Below are positions 2,649-18,428 of a DNA stretch of 21,374 nt, piece by piece (positions within the stretch are counted from its first letter, which is position 1; every line of letters begins with the position of its first letter). The stretch is from positions 1 through 21,374 of the forward strand of contig JANOTL010000217.1 in the NCBI GenBank assembly GCA_031416315.1, given 5' to 3'. The notes beneath the pieces are model-generated. The model was not told the origin of the DNA, made no database searches, and saw nothing but the letters and a program-made list of their open reading frames with translations. Origin of the DNA: Pseudomonadota bacterium. Its GTDB lineage: Bacteria; Bdellovibrionota_B; Oligoflexia; Oligoflexales; CAIYRB01. Both the position numbers and the translations under genes were made by a program.

Positions 2649-4241
2649 CTACCAGACGACCGCGAGCCCGAAACCAGCGTAAGTCATGACGTAGCTGACC
2701 TGGAATCCCGAAGTGCGGATCTCCACGTCCTCGCGTTGCAAGACGCCACCCTGATTCCCCGTGATCGCCATGCTCTCGCGCAAGACGAAAGCGAGCGGCG
2801 AGAGGAAGGTCAAAGACCTCCTACCGCCGAGCTTCTTTGCATTGAAGACCGCGTCGAGGCCGAGCCGAGTGCCAACGACGCTGTTCGCGACTTTGTTCTC
2901 GCCGCCGAGCGTCGCGTCGCGGCTCGCCCAGCCGCGCACGACGAACCAAGGGCCCGAGAACTCGGCGCCCGCCTCGAGGCCTGCGCCCCAAGCGCGGTGG
3001 AGTCGCACGGGGACCGTATAAGTTTTGCCCGCTTCGATCGGGTCCGCGAGGACGATCGTCGATTCGACGTTCCAAAGGCCGGCCTTCGGGGTGAGGTCGA
3101 CGTGGTCCAAGATCGCGGGCATTTTGAGCCGAAACGACCACCCTAGCTGCAGGCGTCGGACGCCGAACGCGAGCTGGGTTCGATCGTTGCGCAAGGTAGG
3201 AATGATCTCGTAGCGTGCCTGCAATCCGTCGAGAACGCCCCACCGCGATTCGGCGACCGCGCTGACGAGCGTCGCCGCGCGCCCGAACTGAACCTCGCTC
3301 CCCTGAACATCCACGCCGTAACGCACGCCGACGACGAAGGGCGCGACAAAGGTAGACGTGACGTAGTTGGTCAAGGTCGCACCCGCGCCGTCGAAGCGGT
3401 CGAGTGCGTAAGAGTCGACAGATTCGATCGCGCTGCGATAGGCGGCCAGCGCGCACGACTCCAAGCCCTTGCGCACGCCCGGCGCGTCGTCCGAAACGAT
3501 CAGCATAGCGCCCGCAGCCAAGCCCGCACGCGGTTCCGAAAACTTCCAGGTCTCGCCTTTGGGATCGGCCTTGAGGTCGCCGCGGGCGACCGGTGCCCCG
3601 TTCACCTCGGCGGCGATCGCCACCTGCCGGGGCGGTACCGGGGTTTGGAGGCAAGCCTCGAACGCCTCGGAACGCACCGGGCGCGAGCGCGCCGCGAATT
3701 CCTGCGGCTGCAGACGGCCGGCCGCGGGTAAGGAAAAGAGGATCGTTCCGGCGAGCAGACGCACGTGTGCGTCGTCCTGCATGAACGTCTCGACCCACTG
3801 CGGCGGGGTCAGGCGTAGATCGTAGACCGGCTCGAGCGGCCCGATCGCCGCGCGGTCCTGGCCACCGGAGGTCTGGAGGACCGCGATCGAGAAGTCACGC
3901 GCTGAGGGCGTCAGCGCTACGAGCCAGGTGCTGGCGCCAGCCTTCCCCGCGATGAGGCGGCCTTCGATGTAGCAGCCGTAGCTTCGAAACGCGCCGAGGC
4001 CCCAGAGCCCGCCGCCGGCGACGAGGCTCTCGCCGAGCCGGGAGCAAGCCTCGGTCATTCCGGAGTCGCTCCAGGTCGCCGGCGCCGCGCCCGCCCAAGA
4101 AAGGGTGACGTGCGCCAGGCTCGAGCCGTCGCGGAGCGGCTCGGCGCGCGACGGCGAGGCCCCGCCGAAGAGCGCGGAGCTCACGAGACTCGCCGCGAAA
4201 AGGCGGCGAATTGGGCGAATGTTCCAAATGGGGGTGCGCAT
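2649..4241 (-). CDS. Secreted hypothetical protein, probable C-terminal outer-membrane beta-barrel
   Basis: 530-aa ORF with a signal peptide (RRLFAASLVSSALFGGASPSRA-E). The C-terminal ~230 aa are amphipathic strands (VVGVRYG, LQLGWSF, AGLEAGAEF, LGLDAVF) and end YAGFGLAVVW with a terminal aromatic residue. Confidence 0.75.
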   Translation of the reverse strand: MRTPIWNIRPIRRLFAASLVSSALFGGASPSRAEPLRDGSSLAHVTLSWAGAAPATWSDSGMTEACSRLGESLVAGGGLWGLGAFRSYGCYIEGRLIAGKAGASTWLVALTPSARDFSIAVLQTSGGQDRAAIGPLEPVYDLRLTPPQWVETFMQDDAHVRLLAGTILFSLPAAGRLQPQEFAARSRPVRSEAFEACLQTPVPPRQVAIAAEVNGAPVARGDLKADPKGETWKFSEPRAGLAAGAMLIVSDDAPGVRKGLESCALAAYRSAIESVDSYALDRFDGAGATLTNYVTSTFVAPFVVGVRYGVDVQGSEVQFGRAATLVSAVAESRWGVLDGLQARYEIIPTLRNDRTQLAFGVRRLQLGWSFRLKMPAILDHVDLTPKAGLWNVESTIVLADPIEAGKTYTVPVRLHRAWGAGLEAGAEFSGPWFVVRGWASRDATLGGENKVANSVVGTRLGLDAVFNAKKLGGRRSLTFLSPLAFVLRESMAITGNQGGVLQREDVEIRTSGFQVSYVMTYAGFGLAVVW

Positions 4242-4321: not shown

Positions 4322-5305
4322 GTGAGGTCTCTCGTCTTGCGCCAACTCTTCCTGCCCGTCCGTACCGTCGCCAGAGCTCACCCGACTTACGTCGTGGTCG
4401 CGCTCGCGCTCGTCGCGTCCGCATGCGTCGTCCGTAGTGACGAGCGCGCCGCGTTACCCGCAGCAGCCGCGGAATCTTGGATCGACGCCGGGGTCGGCAG
4501 CGGCGACGTTCCCCATGAGCCGGCCTTTCGCGAGCGCGCCACGAATCTGTTTTGGTCCGCAGGGCTTGGGCCGGACGCGGACGACGGCGAGCCTGCGCCG
4601 CGCGAGGCAAGCTGGGCCGAAGCCGACGCTCATTGCCGCTCGGTGCAGAGCTTCGCCGGCAGCTCGGCTTGGCGTCTTCCGACGGCCGACGAAGTGCGTC
4701 GCGCCACGGTCGACAATTCCGGACGCTATCGCGTCGACGGCCTCGCGTACGTGCTGGATGCAGAGCCGCGCGTTGGAGCGTGGACGCGCTTCACCTACCT
4801 CTGGACGAGCGACGGCGGAACTTCTGCTGCGACGCGCACCGCCCTTTTGCGCGCCGGGACGAGCTTGGAGCAAGTGTCGCTACGCGCCGACCGTCAAGTC
4901 TCGTGGTTGTGCGTGAGTGAAGGCGGCGCAGACGCGTCGATCGCCGATCTCGAAGGCTCGGCGACACGGCGTGAAGCCTTGATCCGCGCGACCGCGCATG
5001 TCGTGTCGAGCAGCGCGATCGGCGCGGACGGTCAGCTTGCGTTGCCTGATTTAAAGAGTGCTGATCGTCGCGAAATTCTGCGCAGCTACGTCGGCGCCGT
5101 GCGCCTCGTCGTCGGAACGCGTGCGTCTCTCGTCTGGACGGTCGCCGGGCGCGATGCCGATGACGTCCTGGCCGAGGTCCTCGAACTCGACGTCGGGACC
5201 CGGACGGGGGCCCAAAGGGAGGCTTGCACCGGTCCGAAATGCGCCGCATCCGCATTTTCGCAGATTTTTTTCGCCCTCGACCACCCCCGCAAGACCTCAA
5301 GGTGA
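4322..5305 (+). CDS. DUF1566/Lcl-type (C-type-lectin-like fold) domain protein, possible lipoprotein
   Basis: ERATNLFWS...SWAEADAHC...AWRLPTADEV...YLWTS...SWLCV matches the DUF1566 pattern. A hydrophobic stretch ends in VASA-C. GTG start is uncertain. Confidence 0.75.
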   Translation: MRSLVLRQLFLPVRTVARAHPTYVVVALALVASACVVRSDERAALPAAAAESWIDAGVGSGDVPHEPAFRERATNLFWSAGLGPDADDGEPAPREASWAEADAHCRSVQSFAGSSAWRLPTADEVRRATVDNSGRYRVDGLAYVLDAEPRVGAWTRFTYLWTSDGGTSAATRTALLRAGTSLEQVSLRADRQVSWLCVSEGGADASIADLEGSATRREALIRATAHVVSSSAIGADGQLALPDLKSADRREILRSYVGAVRLVVGTRASLVWTVAGRDADDVLAEVLELDVGTRTGAQREACTGPKCAASAFSQIFFALDHPRKTSR

Positions 5306-5411
5306 CGGGCGCGCTTTTTGCCGGATCGCCCAAATGCGGTCCGAGGCCGCGGTAAACGTTCCGCTCAGGAATTCTCCTTAAGATCCCGATTCCGGTAAGG
5401 AACATCGAGGA

Positions 5412-7292
5412 TTGATCTTGAGCTTTCGGACGCTGAAAATTTTGTTGCTCGTCATGGTCTCCCTGACCTTGTCGTCGACATCGGCCGTGCCCCCCGCGCG
5501 CGGACCAGCAATCCCGGCCGAGCGCAAAGTCTTGATCAAGAGCTACTACGAGATGCTCGTGCGCGACATCGTGCGCAACGAGATGGTCGGCGTGCTTCAC
5601 GGTGAGGAGGTCGAGGTGTGGGTGCAAACGCACTTCGACGAGCAGCGTTTTGCAGCTGACGTCGAGAGCGCGCGCGCGAAAATGGGCGATCTTCGCAAAC
5701 TAAGCGTCGCGCAACAAATCGAAGCGCAAAAGAAGCTGCTTCAGCAGCTCACGGCCGTCAAAGGCAAAGGCGCTCCCACCGACGGCGGCGCGACGGTGGA
5801 AGGCGGCGTCAACGCCCAAGCCGTGAAATCGTTCCCGAAGTTCGGCAAGCTCAACATCGATCTCGATTACGGGGTCGCGGCCGAGCTCGCCGAGCTGGAG
5901 CGCAAAAGGCGGCGTGCGACGAGCGAGGGCGACCGTCCTATCGTCGTCGTCGCCCCCGAGGCGGCAGTCTCGTCCGCCGACGGGCGCAATTCCTATGAAG
6001 GTGCGGCGGGTGACGTGTACGACGCTGAGGTCTACCTCGACGCCGTCGACGTGACGATTGCGATGCCGGCGGCACTCGTCGAGACGAAGGCCGAGCTCAT
6101 CCGCGAGCGTCTCTCGGCGCAGGCGGAGCTAGCGGCCTTGGACGCCATCGGACACTTTACGATTCGCATTGTGAGTCAGGTGGCAGCGCTGGATCCACGG
6201 GCGTCCGCGCTTAGTACTTCCATAGCTGCGATCGAGGCCCCCGTCGCTGCGGTGGAGGCGCCCGTTGCGAAGGTCGAGGCGCCCGTCACTGCGTTGGAGG
6301 CGCCCAGCGCCGTCTCGGTGCTCCCGCTCGTTTCCGTCACCGGCACTAAGCCGACGCCGACGCCGGCACCATCTGCCGTTGAGCCCCTTACCGTCCCATC
6401 GACCACGGGAGACCGCAGCCCGCTCCCTTCGGCGCTTCCTTCCGCCGAAGCCGCACCCTTTGGGCTCGCCACGAGCATCTGGGTCGCAGCCTTGGTTCTC
6501 GGCATCTTCCTCTTCCTTGCCGCGGCGATGATCTGGCACGGCTTGATGCGAGCGACACGCAAGGTCGAAGGTCAGAGCCCCGTCGCATCGGGCCTAGCCC
6601 CGACTTTGCGAGAGGCAATCGCAGACGACGGTCCGCGCGTCGAGGATCAAGTGACGACGGACCCCGATCATCCGCGTTATTCGGACGACACGATCTTGAG
6701 CTACGCGCGTCATGCCTCGCCGCACGAGATCTCCCATTTGGTCGCGATCCTGCCGCCGGCGAAGTTGGCGAAGGTGCTGCGCGCCTTGCCGCTGGAAACG
6801 GCCTGTCGGGCTTTGCAGTTGGCCGACGTCGCCATGGATTCCCCGGCTTCGAGGCTCGCGCTCGCCATCGAGTTGCGCGCGAGCGCCGGGTTCAACGATG
6901 CTTGGATCGACGTCATGCGGCTCCGATACGGATCTGCGCTTCTAGGTGAGCTCGTGTGCGCACGTGTCCTTCCGCAAGAGCTTCGGTTCGTGTCGAGCGA
7001 AATCTGGGAGGCTGTCTTGCCGGGTCTCCCCGACGAGGTGGTCGCGCACTTGCTACTCTCGAGCGATGACCGCCTGCGCCGTAGCGTCGAGATCGTACTG
7101 CCGCCTAAACGTGCGCGCCGCGTTCGGTCGACAGCAGTGGCGGCTTTGTCCGCCGAAACACGCGAGATCGCGCTCGATGCCGCGGGCGCGGCCGTGACTT
7201 TGCACGTCTCGCGCCACGAAGCGTCTCGCCGGGCGCTCGTCGCCGCGATGCAGGGCGAGCCCGTGCCACGGACGCTGCCGTCCGCAGGCTGA
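5412..7292 (+). CDS. Membrane protein with periplasmic FliF-RBM3-like region, Pro/Ala linker, TM helix and cytoplasmic FliG middle/C-terminal-like region
   Basis: 626-aa ORF with an N-terminal signal/anchor and TM IWVAALVLGIFLFLAAAMIW. ISHLVAILPPAKLAKVLRALP and LPDEVVAHLLLSSDDRLRRSVEIVLPPKRA resemble FliG armadillo motifs. The start may be TTG 5418 (GAGG at 5407-5410). The CDS is secure; the domain call is tentative. Confidence 0.6.
   Translation: MILSFRTLKILLLVMVSLTLSSTSAVPPARGPAIPAERKVLIKSYYEMLVRDIVRNEMVGVLHGEEVEVWVQTHFDEQRFAADVESARAKMGDLRKLSVAQQIEAQKKLLQQLTAVKGKGAPTDGGATVEGGVNAQAVKSFPKFGKLNIDLDYGVAAELAELERKRRRATSEGDRPIVVVAPEAAVSSADGRNSYEGAAGDVYDAEVYLDAVDVTIAMPAALVETKAELIRERLSAQAELAALDAIGHFTIRIVSQVAALDPRASALSTSIAAIEAPVAAVEAPVAKVEAPVTALEAPSAVSVLPLVSVTGTKPTPTPAPSAVEPLTVPSTTGDRSPLPSALPSAEAAPFGLATSIWVAALVLGIFLFLAAAMIWHGLMRATRKVEGQSPVASGLAPTLREAIADDGPRVEDQVTTDPDHPRYSDDTILSYARHASPHEISHLVAILPPAKLAKVLRALPLETACRALQLADVAMDSPASRLALAIELRASAGFNDAWIDVMRLRYGSALLGELVCARVLPQELRFVSSEIWEAVLPGLPDEVVAHLLLSSDDRLRRSVEIVLPPKRARRVRSTAVAALSAETREIALDAAGAAVTLHVSRHEASRRALVAAMQGEPVPRTLPSAG
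6231..6314 (+). repeat. Four 21-nt (7-aa) tandem repeats IEAPVAA/VEAPVAK/VEAPVTA/LEAPSAV in the periplasmic linker
   Basis: Units start at 6231, 6252, 6273 and 6294 and share GAGGC(G/C)CCC. Confidence 0.85.
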
Positions 7293-7294
7293 GC

Positions 7295-7888
7295 TCAGCG
7301 ATTGCGCGCGCCCGTCTCGAGTCGAGCTTCGATCAAGGTCAGCATGCCGCGTGCTTCGTCGTTGTCCGGCTCGAGTTCGATGACGCGAGCCCACGCGGCG
7401 CGGGCTTGAGCCATCTTGTCCGTCAGGTAGTAGACGGTGCCTTCGAGCTCGTACGCGCTCGCGACGTTCTCGCTCGCGCGGCGGATCTCGGCGGCGACTT
7501 TCATCGTCTCCTCGAAACGACGCTGCAAGAGAAGGCGCTGGCCCTTGAGCACTAGCCGAACATAGCGGTTGATTTCGGCGTAGTTGGCGGCGTCGGCGGC
7601 GAGCGCTGCGCGAATCGCCAGGTCTCCGCCCGTCTCCGGTACGAGGAAAGACTCGCTGCGGAACCCTTGCTTCCGGACGACGAGCCGCTTCGGCGCCGTG
7701 CCGGCCAGATCGCTCAAGGCGGTACCGGTCGTCTTGAACGGCGTATAGCCGAGCACGCGCGGCACGTCGTCGCCTTCGACCTCGAGCGCGATCTCGGCGC
7801 CGGCCGGGCTCGACTCCACTGCGATCGTCGGAGAGCAAGCCGTTGCCAGCGTTGCTAGGGTCGAGAAGGCTAGGATCGAAGCGCGCAT
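7295..7888 (-). CDS. PEGA-like + TPR lipoprotein
   Basis: MRASILAFSTLATLATA-C lipobox. VESSPAGAEI..LGYTP..LVVRKQGF is PEGA-like. AYELEGTVYYL..ARAAWARVIELEPDN is a TPR. ATG 7888 was chosen from the signal peptide; GTG at 7900 is an alternative. Confidence 0.8.
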   Translation of the reverse strand: MRASILAFSTLATLATACSPTIAVESSPAGAEIALEVEGDDVPRVLGYTPFKTTGTALSDLAGTAPKRLVVRKQGFRSESFLVPETGGDLAIRAALAADAANYAEINRYVRLVLKGQRLLLQRRFEETMKVAAEIRRASENVASAYELEGTVYYLTDKMAQARAAWARVIELEPDNDEARGMLTLIEARLETGARNR

Positions 7889-8008
7889 GCGAGCTTTCAC
7901 GAGGGGAGGTGTCCTCCTATTATGTGCCATTTTTGTTCCGCCCGCCGTCCGCCGGAACGCCGTGGAACAGAAAAACAACAATTTCATCTTTAATTCAAGC
8001 TAGTTACC

Positions 8009-10030
8009 TTAGCCCGATCGCGCCGCGCCGCGCATCGGCAATACGAGCGACAAGGGACTCTTCAGCACCTGCGCCATGATCGCCCGCCGCAGCATGCGGC
8101 GTTGCGCGCTCGGAATGTTGCGCGCTTTCGTGGCGACGACGATCGCGAGTCCGAAGCTCACGCCTAGGTTCAGCGCCCCGATCGCGACCAGGCCCGCCGC
8201 GACGGCGGCAATCGAGCCTGTGCTCATCGCGCGCCCGCCGCCGCAAAGAAAGGCGAGCGTCAAGCCGCCCGAGGCGAGCGTGATGTGGCGCGCTTCGAGC
8301 GGCAGGCCGAATCCAGAGACCAGGCGCGGCACGAAGGCCAAGAGGAGACCGAGACCGACGTTGCCCACCGCGGCCGGCGCCCCGTGCTCGAAGAGCTGGG
8401 CGAAGCGTTTTGCCTTCGTCTCGCCCAGCGCGATCCGGACCCGGCGGTGGTCTCCGATCGAGTCGGCGACGCGCCGAAATCGCAGGAGGTTTGCGGCCCA
8501 ACCGCTCATGATCGACGAGGCCCAGAGCGCCAAGCCGCAATAGGCCGCAAACAGCGGCGAAAGGCCGAAGATCGAATGGCTCTCGATCAAATGATGCGCG
8601 TCGTCCGCAGACATCGGCGTATGGCCGAGAAGCCGCGTCGAGATCGACCAAGCGAGGCTGACGCCGCAAGCGACGCCGAACAGGTTGCCGAAGATCGTCG
8701 CGATCTGCGTGCGAACGAGGTTCACGAGCTCTTTCGCGAACAAGACGATCCGAGCCGGCCCCGGATCTCCGTCGAGCGTACGCGCCAAGGTCGCCGCGGT
8801 CATCGCCGGCTGCTTCGTCGCGAGCGTGAAGTCGAACGCCTGGATCACGAGAAAACTAACGGCATAGATCATCGCCGTCGACAGGCCCTTGAGCAAGGGC
8901 GCCAGCTCGGAGTGCTCCGAGGCGATCTTGCCGAAAATCGTCACGACCGTGATCACGCCGCCGCCGAGCGCCGCGCCCAGGATGCGGAAGTAATCGCCGC
9001 GGCCCTTCGTGATGTAATGATCGCCGGTCTCCGCGTTCGCGTCCGCGATGCGGTGGGCGACGGTGCGAGTGACGTCGGTCCAGAGCGGCAGCATCTCGTG
9101 CCGCCTTGCCGCTTCGCCCGCGAGCTGCGCCAGAAGCGCCGGACGGGCCAACGGATTCTTCTCGACGTCGACCCAGTACGTCGCGAGCGTCCGAATACGC
9201 GCGAGAATCGCGGCGAGTCGGTGCGCCTGGTAGGTCAAAGAGAAGCTCGAGCCGCGCTCGCGAAACGTCGCTTCGAGATGCCGCAGCTCTTCGTCGCAGC
9301 GGCCCTGCGCCGCGGCGATGCGATCCCAATCCTCCGCGGTGGGGCGCGTCGACTCGCTCGTGATGCGCGCCGCGGCCGCGTCGAGGTCGTGGAACGCCGA
9401 GGCGGTCGGACGGCGCGACGGCAAGCGTAGGCGGATCTCTTCGAATGCCGCGATGACGCGCGCTTTGCTCGCGAGGACGCCGATCGCCTCGCGCAGGTCG
9501 CGACGCCATTCCTCGGGATCGACGGCGAGGATCGTGGCGATTTTCACCATGTCGGTCGCGGTGAGGGCGAGAAGCCAGGCCGAATCTTCCGGCGTCGGGA
9601 AGAGGCGATGCAGGAGGTCGCCGAAATCCTGCGGCACGCGCTGGCTCGGGAGGAGCTTGAACCAAAGCCGCTCGCTCAGCTCCGCGCCCAGGCCCATGTC
9701 TCCGGTCAAGCCGGCGGAGCTGAACAAGTCGACGGAATCGAGCTGCGCCAGGAGCGAGCGGAGGGCGGCGCCGACCGAGCGCGCGCGCTCCGGATTGCGC
9801 TCGAGGAGCGAGATGAGCATGCGAACGCGGCCGATGGCGCCTTCGCCGCTGCCGGCAGGGCGCGCGGCGCGCGGCGGCGTGCGAATGAAGGCCGACAGCT
9901 CTTCGAGCCAGCGCACGCGCGCGACGAGCGGCGCGTCCGGCTTCGGGGCGTCGAGCAGGTAGTCGAGGCCAGGCCGCGCGGTTCGAGAGGCGCGCCAGCG
10001 ACGGATGACGGATGTTTCGGACGTATGCAT
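8009..10030 (-). CDS. PF10136-family ('site-specific recombinase', Gcr-like) polytopic membrane protein
   Basis: 673 aa from ATG 10030. Family motifs ETGDHYIT, ALGGGVIT, FTLATKQPAMTAA, RTQIATIFGN, LGLLLAFVP, GLPLEARHITL, LNLGVSF. The ORF extension upstream of 10030 overlaps the neighbouring gene and was discarded. Confidence 0.85.
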   Translation of the reverse strand: MHTSETSVIRRWRASRTARPGLDYLLDAPKPDAPLVARVRWLEELSAFIRTPPRAARPAGSGEGAIGRVRMLISLLERNPERARSVGAALRSLLAQLDSVDLFSSAGLTGDMGLGAELSERLWFKLLPSQRVPQDFGDLLHRLFPTPEDSAWLLALTATDMVKIATILAVDPEEWRRDLREAIGVLASKARVIAAFEEIRLRLPSRRPTASAFHDLDAAAARITSESTRPTAEDWDRIAAAQGRCDEELRHLEATFRERGSSFSLTYQAHRLAAILARIRTLATYWVDVEKNPLARPALLAQLAGEAARRHEMLPLWTDVTRTVAHRIADANAETGDHYITKGRGDYFRILGAALGGGVITVVTIFGKIASEHSELAPLLKGLSTAMIYAVSFLVIQAFDFTLATKQPAMTAATLARTLDGDPGPARIVLFAKELVNLVRTQIATIFGNLFGVACGVSLAWSISTRLLGHTPMSADDAHHLIESHSIFGLSPLFAAYCGLALWASSIMSGWAANLLRFRRVADSIGDHRRVRIALGETKAKRFAQLFEHGAPAAVGNVGLGLLLAFVPRLVSGFGLPLEARHITLASGGLTLAFLCGGGRAMSTGSIAAVAAGLVAIGALNLGVSFGLAIVVATKARNIPSAQRRMLRRAIMAQVLKSPLSLVLPMRGAARSG

Positions 10031-10068
10031 AGGATGGGTACTTTGCGTTGGGCGTGCCGAAGTCGGCG

Positions 10069-10587
10069 TCAGCGTTCTCGGCGCAAGAAGGTTTGGACGT
10101 AGTCGACACCGGCGAAGGCGCTTATGGCGGCCGTGAAGTAGACGAGGGCTGGAAGGGGCTTTTTCAGCACGAAGAGCGCCAAGAGGAGCGAAAGCTGACA
10201 GAACGTCGCGAATTTTCCCGACCAGAGGGGGAGCATGCGCGTCAGCCCCGAGAAATCTTTGCGCGCGGTGGCCCACATCACGCCGCCGACCACCGTCAGG
10301 TCGCGCAAGATCACGAGGAAGAGGTCTAGCGGGCTCAAGAGGTCGTGCAGGGCGAGTGTGCACAGCGCGCTAAACACGAAAACCTTATCCGCGATTGGAT
10401 CGAGGTAGGTGCCGAGCGTGGTGACGGCACCGAGCCGCCGCGCAAGCGGGCCGTCGAGCGCCTCGCTGAGTGCCGCGGCGCCGGCTACGGGCAGCCACCA
10501 CTCTGACGGCAAAGCCGGGAAGGCTAGGCCGAAGAGGAGCCGGACCGAGGTCAAGGCGTTCGGAAGCTGGGCCAGGGCGCGGGTCAT
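10069..10587 (-). CDS. CDP-alcohol phosphatidyltransferase family protein (PgsA/Cls-like)
   Basis: LPNALTSVR, DGPLARRLGAVTTLGTYLDPIADK, ILRD and GKFAT motifs. GGAG lies just upstream of ATG 10587. Confidence 0.92.
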   Translation of the reverse strand: MTRALAQLPNALTSVRLLFGLAFPALPSEWWLPVAGAAALSEALDGPLARRLGAVTTLGTYLDPIADKVFVFSALCTLALHDLLSPLDLFLVILRDLTVVGGVMWATARKDFSGLTRMLPLWSGKFATFCQLSLLLALFVLKKPLPALVYFTAAISAFAGVDYVQTFLRRER

Positions 10588-11983: not shown

Positions 11984-12934
11984 ATGATACGCCCCGAGAT
12001 GACCGCCGTCGTTCCGGCCCATGCGGCCGAGGCCCACGTTGCTCGCGCCTTGCAAAGCCTGCTGGATCAGCATCTATCGCCCGGAGCGATGGAGATCATC
12101 GTTGTCGACGACGGCTCTCCCGATCGAACAGCTGAGATCGCGCGCGCAACGCTGCAGCGCTCTCCGTATGCGTGGCAGATCGTAGCAAATGCTCAGGCGA
12201 GGGGTGCTGCGGGAGCGCGCAACCAAGGTCTAAACCTTGCACGAGGCGAGTGGCTGCAATTTCTCGATGCCGACGACGAGCTCGTCCCCGGGAAGCTGCG
12301 GGCGCAGTTGGCGCAGGCGCGCGTCGCGCCGGACAAGACTGCCGTTATCTATTCCGAGTTCAGGCGCGAGCCCGGGCGCGCCGTGCATTTCCCAGCGGTC
12401 GCCGCCGCGGTCGATCCCCTGACGAGCCTTCTCGCGGGCGACGGCTTCATCCAGATCGGCGCGCAGCTGGTGCGCCGCCAAGCGGCGTTGGCGATCGGCG
12501 GCTTCGACCCGGCTTTCAAGCACATCGAGGACGTCGACTTCCTCCAACGCTTGCTGATGACGGGACATCGGCTCGAGGCTCTGGCTCTTGGCGCCCCCGG
12601 CCTGATCTTCCATCAGGGCGCGCAGACCGTGGCGAGACCCACGACACCCGCATTTCATGACGAGGTATCGCGGTCGCTAGCGACCGCGGAGACTATGTGG
12701 CGGCGCAACGGCCTGACCGCTCTTCAGGCTGAGGTGCTCGTCCAGGGCTATGCGATGTGCATTCGGAAGGCGCCTTCGGAAGACCTGGGAAAACGGCTCG
12801 ATGCTCTTGGTCCAACACGCGGCAAGCTTGGATGGCTCGCGCGACTCTTGGGTCACTACGACGCAGCCCGCGTGCTATCGCGGCTCAGGCCTACTTTCGC
12901 CCCGTCTGCGGCGGCTTCGCGCGCCGGATCGTGA
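11984..12934 (+). CDS. Glycosyltransferase family 2
   Basis: EIIVVDDGSPD, GAAGARNQGL, FLDADD and GGFD..IEDVDF motifs. Confidence 0.92.
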   Translation: MIRPEMTAVVPAHAAEAHVARALQSLLDQHLSPGAMEIIVVDDGSPDRTAEIARATLQRSPYAWQIVANAQARGAAGARNQGLNLARGEWLQFLDADDELVPGKLRAQLAQARVAPDKTAVIYSEFRREPGRAVHFPAVAAAVDPLTSLLAGDGFIQIGAQLVRRQAALAIGGFDPAFKHIEDVDFLQRLLMTGHRLEALALGAPGLIFHQGAQTVARPTTPAFHDEVSRSLATAETMWRRNGLTALQAEVLVQGYAMCIRKAPSEDLGKRLDALGPTRGKLGWLARLLGHYDAARVLSRLRPTFAPSAAASRAGS

Positions 12935-14399
12935 AGCCCAAGTGGCCGCCGAAGTTGAAGAGCTTCAGTCCAGGCTCGCCGAGAGAGGTCTGGCCGATAC
13001 TTTCATAGAGGACGTCCCAACCCAAGAACCAAGTGTCCGTGAGCCGTAGGTTGAACTCGGCGTTCAGCTGGTAGTAAGGACTGATCGTCGACAGCGAGAC
13101 CGCGCCGCGGATGCCTGCCCAGTAGTCGTCGTAGTCGGCGAGGGCGGTCGCGTAGAACGCGGGTCGAATCTTGTAGCTGCGCACGCCCTTGTAGTCGTCC
13201 TCGGTCTCACCCGTGACGGCGTCGACGAGCTTGATCGGGTCAAAGGGGATGTTCGCCTTGTCGATCATCAGTCCCACGCCGCCGGCGAGCGTATACTCGA
13301 GGAGCGAGTACCTTCCCCCGACGAAGCCTTCAGCTTGCGTGAGCTCGGACTTCTTGTCGTCGGTCCCATTGTATGGGGACGCAACGAGCGTCCGATAGAT
13401 CCGGCCGTCCACGTCGATGAAGTCGCCGATCTCGAGCTTGTTGTGCACGTAACCTGCGGCGAGCAACGGCACGGAAAGTCCGTTCGTGGTCTTGTAACCG
13501 CCGACGTAGAAGCCGGCGCGCTGGCGCACCATGTTGAGCTCGATCGATTCCTTCGACAGGAGGCCCGGATAGTTCATGCTGCCCGTGAGCAAGCTGCCTT
13601 GGCCCTCGCCGATACGCTCCTTGCATTTACGGACGTAGCGCTTCACCTGGCTGCCCTTAGCGTCGGGCGCTTGGATGCGGAAAAAGACCTTGTCAGCATC
13701 GGAGCTCCCCGCCTTCACGAAGGCTTCGCCGTCGACTTCGAAGGCGCGCGTGTCGACGATCAGGCCCTCGCCGATTTTGACGAACTTCGGGCGGCCCTTG
13801 TCGTTGAGCAAGGTGCCTAGGTCGAACGCGACGCAGTTGCCGATCGCCTCGCTCTCAAGATAGCCGACCGAGAGCGCCACGGCTTGCCTTTCGTATTTCG
13901 CTTTCGGCTCGCCCAAGATCAGCTCGCCCTGCTCCTTCGCGCGCTTGCCGAGGTTGCCGGAGGCGGCGACCTCGCCTTCCCAAGGAAGCTCGCGCAGCAG
14001 CTCTTTCACCGCCAGGAGGCCCAAGGCCTCAAAGTCGTTGGCGAGCTCGCCTTCGCGACGCAGCTTCAATCGACGCACGAGGAGGGGCGACATCTTCGCG
14101 CCCGCCTTCGCCTTCTTCGAGCGCGTCATGCTCACCCAAGAGAGGTTGACCGATGAGCCCACGCAGGAAACCGAGATTTTATGGTCGACCGCGGCCTTGG
14201 GGTCGTCCGTCAGCTCGAAGCGATGCCGCGAACGGATGTGGTAGCTCATCGAGTCCACGATCTTTTGGCAGTTGGCGCGATCGCTGGAATCGGGCGCGAC
14301 CGAGATCACGGTCACGTGCTTTGTGGCGCCCGCCCAAGCCGGACCGGCGGCGAGCGTCGCGAAGAGCGCGGCGAGAAGAAGGGGGAGGGCGCGGCTCAT
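12891..14399 (-). CDS. Secreted hypothetical protein, possible FlgT-like periplasmic domains plus C-terminal beta-barrel
   Basis: 502 aa from ATG 14399, which forms an ATGA overlap with the upstream stop and follows GGAGG. Signal peptide MSRALPLLLAALFATLAAGPAWA. ELPWEGEV..VALSVG..KIGEGLIV. C-terminal amphipathic aromatic-rich strands. Confidence 0.75.
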   Translation of the reverse strand: MSRALPLLLAALFATLAAGPAWAGATKHVTVISVAPDSSDRANCQKIVDSMSYHIRSRHRFELTDDPKAAVDHKISVSCVGSSVNLSWVSMTRSKKAKAGAKMSPLLVRRLKLRREGELANDFEALGLLAVKELLRELPWEGEVAASGNLGKRAKEQGELILGEPKAKYERQAVALSVGYLESEAIGNCVAFDLGTLLNDKGRPKFVKIGEGLIVDTRAFEVDGEAFVKAGSSDADKVFFRIQAPDAKGSQVKRYVRKCKERIGEGQGSLLTGSMNYPGLLSKESIELNMVRQRAGFYVGGYKTTNGLSVPLLAAGYVHNKLEIGDFIDVDGRIYRTLVASPYNGTDDKKSELTQAEGFVGGRYSLLEYTLAGGVGLMIDKANIPFDPIKLVDAVTGETEDDYKGVRSYKIRPAFYATALADYDDYWAGIRGAVSLSTISPYYQLNAEFNLRLTDTWFLGWDVLYESIGQTSLGEPGLKLFNFGGHLGFTIRRAKPPQTGRK

Positions 14400-16378
14400 C
14401 CGGCCTCCTCCTTCAGCAGATCCAGGTCGTCGACCGTCTCTTTCGCCGCCCATTCGCCGGAGAACTCCGCGACGACGACGGTGATGTCGTCGTTCGGCGG
14501 ATGGCCGTTGAAGTGGTTGTAGGCGGCCTTGACGATGCCGATCATGAACTCTTCGTGCGGCTGGTCGGCGTTCGCCTCGATCAGCCGCAAGAACTTGCCT
14601 TTACCCCACTGTACATCGTTCTTGTCGGTGCACTCGTAGAGACCGTCCGTATAAAGGAAGAGCTTGTCGCCCGGGTCGAGCTGCGCGGTCTTTTCCTGGT
14701 ACACGGAAGTCGGGTCGATGCCGAGCGGGTTGTTCAGCATCTGCAGCATCTCGCGCCGCTTGCCCTTCTTCTTGCGGCGCTCGTCGCGCTGCGTCTCCAG
14801 GTCGCGGCGGACGATGAGTGGGAAGTTGTGGCCGCCGTTGGCGTAGGTGATCCGCCCCGTGTCCATGTCGATCAGACAGGCGAAGCAGGTCATCGTGTGT
14901 TTTGTGCTGCCGGAGGCGCAGAGCGTGTGATTCAGCTCGGTGAGGAGGAAGCTCATCGAGCCTTCGGGCGATCCCGCCGCGGCGATCTGGCGCGCGACCG
15001 TCGAGGTTCCCGCGAAGACCATGGCCGTGACCAGGGCCGCCGGCACGCCGTGGCCGGTCGCGTCCGCGATCACGAGCAAGTGCAGACGCTCGCCGATGCG
15101 GTAGTGGCCCCACCAGTCGCCGCCGCACTCGGAAGCCGGCTGGAAGTAGCTTTTCACCCGGAAGAACTCGTCTTCGACGACGAGCTTGGGGAAGAACTGC
15201 TCTTGCACCATCTTCGCGGTCGCGAGCTCCGTCTCGAGGCGCGCCTTCTCGACGCGCTCGTGGAGCAGGCTTTCGATTTGCGCGCCCATGTGGTTGACGG
15301 CGCGCCCGAGGAGGCTGACCTCGTCGTTGCCGCTGATCTTGGCGCGCGACTTGAAGTCGCCGCTGGCGATCCGCACCGTCGCGTTGACGACGGCGCGGAT
15401 GTTCTGCGTCAGGCCGCGGGAGGCGATCCAAGTCAGAAGGGTCGCGACGAGCAGGAGGAGGGCAGCCCACAAGAGGGTCTTGACGACGATCAAGCGCACG
15501 GCGTCGTAAGCCGGCTTGCCGTCGGACTCGGTGATCGCGATCAGGTCGTATTTCGGGATGCGCGCGAAGGCGCCGAGCATCTTCTCGCCGTCGGCGTTGT
15601 CCCAGTCCTTGAAGCCGAAGGGGACGGTGTTCTTGCGCACCTCGAGCAAGACCGGATGCTCGCGGTCGAAGCTCCGGATCGGCAGGCGCTTCGGGTCGGA
15701 AGCGGAGATCAAGCCGCCGTCGATGTCGACGACGACCGCGTTCTCCATCGTGCCTTTTCCGAGCGCCGCGTAGAGCTTCGTCTGCCAGACGGTGAGGACG
15801 GCCCAGAGTCGCTCTTTCGAATCCTTGACGTTGAACGGCAAGGCGATCGCGAGCACCGGCACGCCGGCGTCCGGCGTCAAGTTGGTGACGACGACTTGGA
15901 TCTCGTTGCCGCGCGGCGCCACAGTCTTCATCCACTTGCGCGCGAGGTTGCGCACTTTGATCTGCGTGTCGACGGCTTGCTTGCCGCCGTAACGCTCGTC
16001 CTCGACGTAGGGCGAGCGCGCCGTCGCGAGCGTCGTGAGCTTGCCGTCGTCTTCCGCGGACGCGAGCTCGAAGGTCATGAACTCTTTGTTCGACGAGATC
16101 AGGGTGCCGATCATGTCGTTGTACTTCGCCTTCGGCATGCCGCTGATGCCGTTGGTGATGACGATGATCTGACTGACCCAAGACTCGACGACGGTGTCGA
16201 CGCTGTTCGCGGTCATGCGCGCGTTCTGCATCGTTTTTTCTTGAATGCGGAAGAACAGCTGTCCGTAAAAGCTCGAGGCGTTCTGCCACGAGTTCGCGGA
16301 AAGCGCAGCGATCAAGATCAAGCTGATCAGAGCGAACAGCTTGAAGAGGATTGATCTATGGATAGGGACGTTCTGCAA
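14396..16378 (-). CDS. Membrane sensor phosphatase: TM - periplasmic Cache-like domain - TM - HAMP - SpoIIE/RsbU PP2C domain
   Basis: Two TM helices, HAMP (IASGDF..NDEVSLLGRAVNHM), and PP2C motifs ELATAKMVQ, GGDWW, IADATGHGVPAAL, ANGGH, LYTDGL, DDIT. TTG start. Confidence 0.92.
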   Translation of the reverse strand: MQNVPIHRSILFKLFALISLILIAALSANSWQNASSFYGQLFFRIQEKTMQNARMTANSVDTVVESWVSQIIVITNGISGMPKAKYNDMIGTLISSNKEFMTFELASAEDDGKLTTLATARSPYVEDERYGGKQAVDTQIKVRNLARKWMKTVAPRGNEIQVVVTNLTPDAGVPVLAIALPFNVKDSKERLWAVLTVWQTKLYAALGKGTMENAVVVDIDGGLISASDPKRLPIRSFDREHPVLLEVRKNTVPFGFKDWDNADGEKMLGAFARIPKYDLIAITESDGKPAYDAVRLIVVKTLLWAALLLLVATLLTWIASRGLTQNIRAVVNATVRIASGDFKSRAKISGNDEVSLLGRAVNHMGAQIESLLHERVEKARLETELATAKMVQEQFFPKLVVEDEFFRVKSYFQPASECGGDWWGHYRIGERLHLLVIADATGHGVPAALVTAMVFAGTSTVARQIAAAGSPEGSMSFLLTELNHTLCASGSTKHTMTCFACLIDMDTGRITYANGGHNFPLIVRRDLETQRDERRKKKGKRREMLQMLNNPLGIDPTSVYQEKTAQLDPGDKLFLYTDGLYECTDKNDVQWGKGKFLRLIEANADQPHEEFMIGIVKAAYNHFNGHPPNDDITVVVAEFSGEWAAKETVDDLDLLKEEAG

Positions 16379-16523: not shown

Positions 16524-18428
16524 ATGAGCAACTGGCACGACAACCATACGACGGGTCAAGAGCTGCGCCTTTCGCAGCTGTCCCAACGCAGCAACCGAGC
16601 CTTCAAGGTCGGCGCGTTGGTCATCTGGGCGCTCCTGATGCTCGTCGTCGTCCGGGCGCTGGTGCGGGTCGACGATCAGGGCCTGCGCGCCGGTACGAAG
16701 ATTGCTTCGCTTTCCATCCAAAAGGGGAACGTCAAATTCCGCCCGGCGGAGTCGATTCTTTGGGTCGATGCGTCCCTCGATCAGGCTTTTCACGACGGCG
16801 ACACCATCGTTACCGCCTCGGGCGCGCGCGCCGTCATCCGCATCGGCGATGGCCAGCGGATCGAGCTCGGCGAGAACAGCATGGTCGGCCTCGACATGCA
16901 GGCCTTGAAAGCCGGCGGCAACGACGGCGTGAACCTGACCCTCTACAAAGGCAATCTCGTCGCCACGGCGAAGCGCCCGGCGCAGGTGAAGAAAGACAAC
17001 TTGCGCTCGATCTTGTCGAAGATCGGCTGGGACGACTTCGGCCTTCAGGCGCCGAAACAGCTGCCCCCGGACCCGCCCGTCACCATCAAATCGGACAAAA
17101 AGACGTTCAAGCTCAGCGAAGCCCCCGTGAAAATCGCCGCGCCGAAGCAGCTGCCCGCGCCGGTGAAAGCCGAGCCGGTCGCGACCCCCGCGCCGAAGCC
17201 GGAGGCCTTCTTGATCTCCCTCGATGAGACCGCGCCGGAGCCGGCCGTCGCGCCGCCCCCGCCGAAGCTCGTCGCCGTCGTGAAGCCGACCGGTCCGACG
17301 CCGGAGGAGCTCTTCGCCATCGAATCCGCCAAGCTCGCCGCCGCGCAAGCCGAAGCGAAGGCGAAAGCCGACAAAGCCGCCGAAGAGCTGGCGATGCAGG
17401 CCCTCCAGAAAGAAGTCTCGTTCGTCGACAACGCCTCGAGCACCGGCCCCGGCGCCGCGCTTGCCGAGCCGGTTCCCGGCCAGGAGCTGATCCCGGTCGT
17501 GACGTCGGGCCAAAATCTGACCCTTTATACCGGCGAGTCCTTGAAGGACGACAGCTGCGCCGCCGAGGACGTGCGCGTCGACGTCCAGCCGAGCATAGAC
17601 GGCATCAAAGCCTGGAAGGCCGGCAACAAGCCCAAGTCTTGGGTCGGTTTCCTCGATGTCGCCTCGTCCACGGACCCGGCGTCGAAGTTCCGCGTCTTCG
17701 CTGCGGCGACCCGCTTCGGCAAGCAAACGATCAAGATTCCGGCGCGAGAGATCTGCCGCCTGCCGCGCAGCCCGAACGCGGTCGGCGTCGCGCTCAACCT
17801 GACGCCCGGCGTCGTCTTCAAGGTCGGCGGTCCGGACTCGGTCGGCTCGGCGGCGACGCGCATGTTCGTCGGCTCGCTCGCGGACTTCCCGGCGATGCCC
17901 ATCACCGTCTACGTCACCAAGATCGGCAAGGCCAAGAAGTCGCGGCGCGGCTGGGTGCCGCAAGGCGCGGTGCCGACCGGCGGCTACGCGATTCGCCTAA
18001 AGACGGCGCAGGACCTTCCGGCGCTCTACGACCTGATCAAATCGAGCGGCAGCTTCAGCTATGCGAACGCCTCGGTCGACGCGATGGCCGAGAAGGTGCA
18101 CCTCGCCAGCAACGGCCTGATCCTCGCGACCGTCGGCGCCGCGAGCTATACGAAGGCAGACATCCGCGCGATCGCCGCGCGCCTCGACGCCAACGTCGCC
18201 TTCACCGGCCAGACCAGCTCGCTGATCGCCTTGCCCAAAGCGTCCATCAACCGCATCAACGCGCTCGAGACGGCGCTCGACAAGCAGGGCACCATCCGCG
18301 TGATGAGCCGGAACCGCATCGTGACCTTGCGTCGCGAGGATGCGCAGCTCAACGCCGATCAGATTCGCATGCTGGCTCGCTCTGCGACTGGAGCCCTGAC
18401 GAAGGACGCGAACGTCGTCGTCCCCTAA
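16524..18428 (+). CDS. Membrane-anchored FecR-domain protein with Pro/Ala-rich linker and unknown C-terminal domains
   Basis: N-terminal TM, then GNVKFRP..W..GDTIVTASGARAVIRIGDGQRIELGENSMV (FecR-like). GAGG precedes the ATG. Confidence 0.8.
   Translation: MSNWHDNHTTGQELRLSQLSQRSNRAFKVGALVIWALLMLVVVRALVRVDDQGLRAGTKIASLSIQKGNVKFRPAESILWVDASLDQAFHDGDTIVTASGARAVIRIGDGQRIELGENSMVGLDMQALKAGGNDGVNLTLYKGNLVATAKRPAQVKKDNLRSILSKIGWDDFGLQAPKQLPPDPPVTIKSDKKTFKLSEAPVKIAAPKQLPAPVKAEPVATPAPKPEAFLISLDETAPEPAVAPPPPKLVAVVKPTGPTPEELFAIESAKLAAAQAEAKAKADKAAEELAMQALQKEVSFVDNASSTGPGAALAEPVPGQELIPVVTSGQNLTLYTGESLKDDSCAAEDVRVDVQPSIDGIKAWKAGNKPKSWVGFLDVASSTDPASKFRVFAAATRFGKQTIKIPAREICRLPRSPNAVGVALNLTPGVVFKVGGPDSVGSAATRMFVGSLADFPAMPITVYVTKIGKAKKSRRGWVPQGAVPTGGYAIRLKTAQDLPALYDLIKSSGSFSYANASVDAMAEKVHLASNGLILATVGAASYTKADIRAIAARLDANVAFTGQTSSLIALPKASINRINALETALDKQGTIRVMSRNRIVTLRREDAQLNADQIRMLARSATGALTKDANVVVP

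Follow-up and report, generated by a model that had tools for sequence, protein, structure and literature searches.

A FliF/FliG-like fusion gene and its adjoining lipoprotein gene in an oligoflexial bacterium: a possible undriven derivative of a one-piece rotary motor

The 21,374-nucleotide contig JANOTL010000217.1 (assembly GCA_031416315.1, Oligoflexales; our contig C217), analysed here in its entirety and referred to as the window, carries a gene for a single protein that resembles the flagellar ring protein FliF in its periplasmic part and the rotor protein FliG in its cytoplasmic part. None of the window's 15 main open reading frames (ORFs) matches a flagellar family in Pfam. The source genome (6.36 Mb, 93% complete) encodes canonical fliG, fliF and fliM and flagellins on other contigs, and separate fliF and fliG genes therefore exist beside the fusion. 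We find that the protein belongs to a family with a characteristic gene neighbourhood, that a lipoprotein gene of that neighbourhood is kept next to it, and that it has lost both a block of residues behind the membrane helix and an acidic torque residue, with accelerated change in its FliG C-terminal domain. Our preferred reading, which we hold tentatively and at slightly less than even chances, is that the protein is an undriven ring scaffold, uncoupled from any stator and accompanied by its lipoprotein, that derives from a one-piece FliF/FliG-MotAB motor. A sequence-only reading of the window had described an orphan fusion and suggested that it forms a repurposed, switch-less inner-membrane ring; the description of the gene is confirmed by the analysis below, and the interpretation is supported in part.

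Predicted architecture of the fusion protein

The ORF has no internal stop, and its likelier start is a TTG preceded, at a distance of 6 nt, by GAGGA at 5407-5411. A scan for promoters and terminators gave no signal better than chance. The GC content of the contig is 0.656 and that of the genome 0.649. Neither Pfam nor NCBIfam returned a significant family for the protein; Pfam gave a sub-threshold match to MgtE_N (E 0.041). Hydropathy and structural models agree with the layout first read by eye, namely a signal or anchor, a periplasmic region, a Pro/Ala linker, one transmembrane helix and a helical cytoplasmic part. Besides the one clear membrane helix there is only the N-terminal hydrophobic stretch, which looks cleavable by eye, and the signals of relatives likewise finish in Ala-x-Ala-like sites. 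We read the gene product as a probable single-pass membrane protein with a predicted periplasmic domain resembling the third ring-building motif (RBM3) and predicted FliG middle and C-terminal domains (FliG_M and FliG_C).

Modelled from its single sequence, the protein had a mean predicted local distance difference test score (pLDDT) of 45.7 and its periplasmic part was left unfolded. An AlphaFold model built from 30 sequences places there a helix and a strand, a helical or disordered insert, and then strand 209-218, helix 220-236 and strand 249-255, with a pLDDT of about 75-92 for these core elements. Alignment A3 is misaligned in its middle (window residues 262-420), and model residues there were disregarded. 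The predicted fold contains a split RBM3 core (alpha-beta, insert, beta-alpha-beta), a core split in the same way as that of FliF RBM3a (PMC11739650), and its elements fall on the two segments that the sequence-only reading had picked out as RBM3 halves. At the level of sequence, hhalign against a shallow FliF profile (16 sequences) gave 0.9%. Foldseek with the whole model listed no FliF chain, a result that does not exclude a relation to FliF, and an Atlas match for the RBM3-like domain (score 0.85) is a lead only. The insert, which carries the family motif FG[RK]LN at residues 144-148, is predicted to be helical or disordered at the position of the FliF beta-collar, as had been proposed, and the collar itself is not in the protein. 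RBM1 and RBM2 are likewise missing, with no Pfam match to PF01514 and no room in the model before residue 36; the sole PF01514 match of the host genome lies on contig C67.

OsmC-like folds outscore FliF RBM3 in structure searches of the periplasmic domain. On these grounds the domain might be an unrelated alpha/beta fold of the OsmC/KH-II type mounted on FliG-like helices, with no FliF part and no ring, but we regard this as very improbable. OsmC/Ohr proteins have two catalytic cysteines, and residues 1-460 of the fusion protein contain no cysteine.

For the cytoplasmic part the structure searches rank FliG well above MgtE. Structure comparison of the model delimits FliG_M at residues 422-494 and FliG_C at residues 518-605, where FliG-middle-like and FliG-C-like segments had been recognised (ASPH at residue 435, PKRA at residue 565). 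FliG_N co-folded with FliF_C is absent from the fusion protein. In the PDB, the family profile matches FliG only, collinearly over FliG_M and FliG_C; it gives 83% against a two-sequence FliG profile and 99.3% against a second fusion family of the host genome. The ESM Atlas holds unnamed clusters of 480-720 aa from several phyla that combine FliG_M/FliG_C, in some cases with YscJ_FliF_C (0.84-0.90, leads only).

Relatives, their neighbourhoods and the retained lipoprotein

Close relatives of the window protein were not found: a word search returned only the protein itself, and of 121 pattern matches in a metagenome scan none was confirmed. Three other representative matches were obtained. Two of these, P0003 and P0004, were discarded, the match being confined to the repeat linker, and the third, P0005, is a distant relative that matched over residues 4-244 and recovered the window gene in the reverse search. 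Starting from P0005 we gathered 29 near-full-length relatives, and the incomplete L017 and L018 were excluded from alignment A3. The family is represented by strong matches in 21 of 130 further genomes from the phylum. Among other genomes of the host's own family, 7 of 11 gave short weak matches only, and full-length matches were absent. The family profile recovers the N-terminal half of the window protein at 97.2% and the C-terminal half weakly (43%, E 2.5e-4; at most 0.9% in 30 shuffles).

Up to 20 kb was fetched around 20 of 21 relatives; several contigs are short and the counts are therefore lower bounds. The neighbourhoods contain motA (15/20), motB (14/20), a HAMP-SpoIIE sensor (12/20), a PEGA-like/TPR lipoprotein (10/20) and a small outer-membrane barrel-like protein (10/20), in an order that is frequently shuffled. 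The MotB proteins of these cassettes possess plug and OmpA domains and keep the ion-binding Asp in 14 of 14 cases; all 15 MotA proteins have a cytoplasmic Arg at the torque position, which we take, from our own alignment, to be equivalent to E. coli Arg90. In seven relatives (L074-L080) motA is inverted, convergent with the fusion gene and separated from motB. These features suggest how intact members may work: they would assemble, by way of the RBM and FliG domains, as polymers that make up a one-piece rotor, which would be turned by the dedicated MotA/MotB against the lipoprotein and the barrel, would be coupled through these two to the outer membrane, and would lack FliM/FliN switching.

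The window retains one of these partners. When the lipoproteins of the relatives are searched against the whole genome, the top match is each time (10 of 10, E 1e-6 to 1e-33) the gene at 7295-7987, which is convergent with the fusion gene, and we therefore regard the fusion and lipoprotein genes as the remnant of a cassette. The fusion gene is accordingly an orphan only with respect to motor genes. Two further candidates were rejected: the HAMP-SpoIIE gene of the window (14396-16378) is the best match for only 1 of 12, in a genome with 42 such profile hits, and neither of the barrel-like genes in the window matches the barrel of the cassettes. No motA or motB lies on the 21-kb contig. The host genome has four motA-motB pairs, and no cassette-type MotA was found in its 93%-complete assembly, where the best candidate scores 199 bits against 353-470 for cassette MotAs and clusters with a paralogous cassette on contig C109. 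The cassette outer-membrane barrel was not found in the same assembly.

The entire family could instead serve the ordinary flagellum as an accessory or alternative rotor, with the window copy as a spare part. Canonical fliF and flagellin are indeed present in 22 of 22 carriers and fliM in 21 of 22, and a flagellum-less carrier of the subfamily was not found among the genomes examined. However, flagella are widespread in the phylum in any case (77 of 86 near-complete genomes), whereas the subfamily occurs in only 21 of the 130 others. The family has no RBM1/2, beta-collar or EHPQ with which to meet the export gate, rod or FliM; the cassette stators form a group of their own, apart from the probably flagellar MotA on contig C55; and the conserved neighbour clusters include no flagellar gene besides motA and motB. 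We consider a flagellar role improbable, and we infer independence from the flagellum from this anatomy and the separate stator group, not from a carrier without a flagellum. Four genomes without fliF each contain a FliG-like match of 330-365 aa and motB, and flagellin is absent from the three tested. In the one whose loci were examined a motor is unsupported: its FliG-like gene is solitary, and the motAB genes belong to a separate helicase-linked cluster. That single-contig genome (G015), without fliF or flagellin, has a lone 330-aa FliG-like gene (L138:7475-8467) and a motA-motB pair flanked by a coiled-coil gene on one side and a large helicase-like gene on the other, Zorya-like by eye (L141:4734-11383).

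Losses in the window copy and its possible fates

In 29 of 29 relatives the stretch between the membrane helix and FliG_M is longer than in the window protein (Table 1). What is missing includes a block of about 100 residues behind the membrane that is the best-conserved part of the family (mean column identity 0.55), and no remnant or frameshifted piece of it was detected in the window's six frames or among genome ORFs at E<10. We read this block as FliF_C- and FliG_N-like because of its position, a weak collinear match to the last helices of FliF and a FliG_N Pfam match in a paralog. A further 17 residues ahead of FliG_C are missing together with the MFXF-like hinge, at whose position relatives have [FL][FL][FL]xD (D in 25/29) and the window protein VLPQE. 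The acid of the torque helix, equivalent to Asp289, is Glu in 29 of 29 relatives and Ala575 here, and neither alignment register places an acidic residue within 561-581. In FliG, as described in PMC6680979, Arg281 and Asp289 face MotA and EHPQR is the FliM-binding motif. The degenerate ASPH at the EHPQ position, remarked on in the sequence-only reading, is present but is not special to this copy, since His and Gln each occur in 1 of 29 relatives at those columns; the loss is family-wide. Divergence is graded along the locus: the ring core and the lipoprotein are near normal, whereas FliG_C has about half the usual identity, the longest branch and the greatest divergence of the 30 rows.

The Pro/Ala linker, which contains a 21-nt tandem repeat (6220-6305), has expanded from the 21-54 aa seen in 29 of 29 aligned relatives. 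The incomplete relative L018 (469-2289, genome G049) has a Thr/Asn-rich insert of about 80 aa at the same site, between ring domain and membrane helix, and growth of the linker alone is therefore no sign of decay. Read run X1 yields one contig over 6257-8100 with zero differences, although X1 is possibly the source of the same DNA and hence not independent; its two contigs share only 28 letters within the linker repeat, so that reads do not confirm the repeat number, and runs X2-X4 gave short pieces only. No RNA dataset was listed as containing this DNA, a result that carries no information on expression.

In the course of events that we propose, the stator and barrel genes would have been lost first, after which selection would have maintained the periplasmic ring, its anchoring in the membrane and its contact with the lipoprotein, while the stator-facing surface was freed. 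The window copy would then be a natural loss-of-drive experiment, in which ring domain and lipoprotein persist and the stator-facing domain erodes, so that the likely structural core can be told apart from the torque parts.

Several points weigh against an undriven scaffold. The RBM3 assignment is one of fold and not of sequence, and the weak C-terminal alignment leaves a one-residue uncertainty of register. FliG often tolerates single charge neutralisations, and the base of the torque helix (equivalent to Arg281) is kept as K566/R567, as it is basic in 27 of 29 relatives. Motor genes are also missing or scattered around intact members: 5 of 20 loci lack motA (three of them on contigs below 10 kb), intact carriers too have split or shuffled cassettes, and several relatives have their lipoprotein gene at a great distance or on a different contig. 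The MotB comparison does not discriminate (local best 147 bits against 136-321), and at 93% completeness the cognate motAB may be among the unassembled DNA. A Salmonella fusion without FliF_C and FliG_N still rotates (PMC6445934). Finally, word, representative, genome and metagenome searches found no second copy with the same eroded architecture, so that decay has to be reckoned with.

Such decay would make the gene a functionless relic of stator loss with its deletion pending, which we judge rather unlikely. The architecture is a singleton, its partners are gone and its gene order is broken, it lacks the 100-aa block and a helix of 17 aa, and its third-position GC content (GC3) is 0.77 against 0.87-0.90 in three paralogs. 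Against this, 626 codons have remained without stop or frameshift even though tip branches amount to 1.6-2.3 changes per site, erosion is confined to particular domains and has left ring core, signal and membrane helix untouched, the lipoprotein that accompanies it is intact, and the GC3 lies at just the 22nd percentile of a crude gene set and is not an outlier.

A still driven rotor, the natural counterpart of the Salmonella deletion fusion, is an unlikely alternative in which the stator would be an unassembled cognate MotAB or the MotAB of contig C109. According to PMC6445934 and PMC6680979, that fusion works without FliF_C and FliG_N and forms a smaller ring; in the window protein the FliG_C fold and basic torque residue are retained, and among local stators the closest is the MotA of C109, which has 38% identity and falls in the same loosely supported clade. 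Against a driven rotor stand the loss of the family-invariant Glu and of the MFXF-like motif, the FliG_C that is the most diverged of the 30 rows, and the lack of a cognate MotA in the assembly.

Further loci and comparison with known systems

The features of the locus are collected in Table 1.

Table 1. Coordinates of the fusion gene, its parts and the adjoining lipoprotein gene in the window
Feature	Coordinates	Strand	Basis and remarks
Fusion gene, FliF-RBM3-like / transmembrane / FliG_M-FliG_C-like	5412..7292	+	626 aa, 626 codons; likely start 5418
Sec signal-like N-terminus	5412..5486	+	Hydropathy; probable cleavage after residue 25, by eye
RBM3-like core, first half (helix 36-58, strand 68-75)	5517..5636	+	AlphaFold model, fold comparison
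Insert at FliF beta-collar position (predicted helices 77-118, 153-170)	5637..6035	+	Alignment, AlphaFold
RBM3-like core, second half (strand-helix-strand, 209-255)	6036..6176	+	AlphaFold, fold comparison
Expanded Pro/Ala linker, about 100 aa	6177..6464	+	Alignment with relatives
Single transmembrane helix, peak residues 356-374	6465..6545	+	Hydropathy
Short cytoplasmic linker, about 47 aa	6546..6680	+	Replaces the family's 169-224 aa segment
FliG middle (ARM) domain-like, ASPH at EHPQ position 6714-6725	6675..6893	+	Model, fold search
FliG C-terminal domain-like	6963..7226	+	Model, fold search
PEGA-like/TPR lipoprotein	7295..7987	-	Lipobox Cys; likely start 7900 or 7888; convergent with fusion gene

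Around these features the window encodes a collagen-like protein of Gly-X-Y repeats (3-2612, +), in which a 10-residue unit recurs about 17 times and whose reading frame is open at the contig start, and a protein with an Lcl_C-like domain (E 2e-7; 4322-5305, +) that is co-oriented about 105 nt upstream of the fusion and was not observed beside the relatives. Immediately upstream of the lipoprotein gene lies a membrane protein of the PF10136 'site-specific recombinase' family (E 6e-154; 8009-10363, -). Two secreted proteins with C-termini that are barrel-like by eye and no Pfam or NCBIfam family are encoded at 2649-4241 (-) and 12891-14453 (-), the latter following the HAMP-SpoIIE gene, itself divergent from a FecR-domain gene (16524-18428).

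The host genome has four one-piece FliF/FliG-like genes, two of them with motAB within about 4 kb. Such a genome might house several flagellum-independent rotary machines, with the window gene encoding a clutched-out member that selection would keep as a static envelope ring, or as a brake or decoy that co-assembles with a driven paralog, although we find this extension doubtful. A complete paralogous cassette lies on contig C109 (L007:6360-15827), where the fusion gene for P0006 is followed directly by motA and motB; it also contains two TPR/PEGA-like lipoprotein genes, a barrel-like gene, a HAMP-SpoIIE gene and a gene that is FecR-like by eye. The third fusion, P0007 (contig C130, L006:9333-11897), has what by eye resemble two tandem RBM units and an EKPQ-like motif, with FliG_M and FliG_C above the Pfam cut-off, best E <1e-40 in 78 of 131 genomes and no motAB in the 20 kb retrieved. 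Contig C136 (L134:6392-8155 and 12390-13812) encodes a fourth fusion-like membrane protein (FliG_C E 7e-4) and, about 4 kb from it, a divergent motA-motB pair. Contig C16 carries a second stand-alone fliG (L008:157-1239), 39% identical to the canonical one and with no obvious flagellar neighbours on the fetched stretch, and contig C31 a second weak FliM match. Three different fusion loci have a DsbA-like thioredoxin gene nearby (L006:5863-6861, L007:15894-17126, L085:191-1315), perhaps by chance. Being a single eroded gene from an uncultured genome, the window copy lends itself less well to experiments than its intact relatives do; within the host genome the C109 cassette is the best target.

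A full-text literature search, mostly of papers outside subscription, returned laboratory fusions and flagellar reviews and no natural FliF/FliG fusion with a dedicated MotAB; the accessible text of a MotAB phylogeny paper (PMC12505986) mentions FliG once and no such system. If it exists, a natural rotor made of one chain and equipped with a stator, lipoprotein and barrel of its own would represent a minimal motor of the flagellar type and would allow a direct test of the FliG-MotAB torque module working, and perhaps evolving, apart from the flagellum.

Among known systems, the ring-building proteins SpoIIIAG/SpoIIIAF and PrgK/EscJ differ from the fusion family in having neither FliG-like domains nor an association with a stator. 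The N-terminal domain of MgtE shares a short helical repeat related to the FliG ARM domain; it is followed in MgtE by a CBS pair and a channel domain, neither of which is present in the window protein with its one transmembrane helix. With the core of the flagellar rotor (the FliF MS-ring with its RBM3 S-ring, FliG and MotA5B2) the family shares a split periplasmic domain followed by a membrane helix, the FliG_M and FliG_C folds and, in the relatives, the torque-helix charges and MotA/MotB. It differs in being a single polypeptide with a signal-like N-terminus in place of RBM1/RBM2, a helical insert in place of the beta-collar, no EHPQ, and lipoprotein and barrel partners; in the window copy the FliF_C/FliG_N-like block, the acidic torque residue and a stator are missing as well. 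The FliF-FliG fusions made in the laboratory, reported for Salmonella (PMC6445934) and as Vibrio FliFG rings (PMC10941966, PMC11481574), join a FliF-type ring and FliG in one chain as here, and the Salmonella deletion fusion, without the last 56 aa of FliF and the first 94 of FliG, lacks the same region as the window protein. RBM1-3 and the collar are retained in those fusions, which are mutants or constructs, and the Salmonella fusion runs in a flagellum with FliM/FliN, whereas the window gene is natural, deeply diverged and located outside flagellar clusters.
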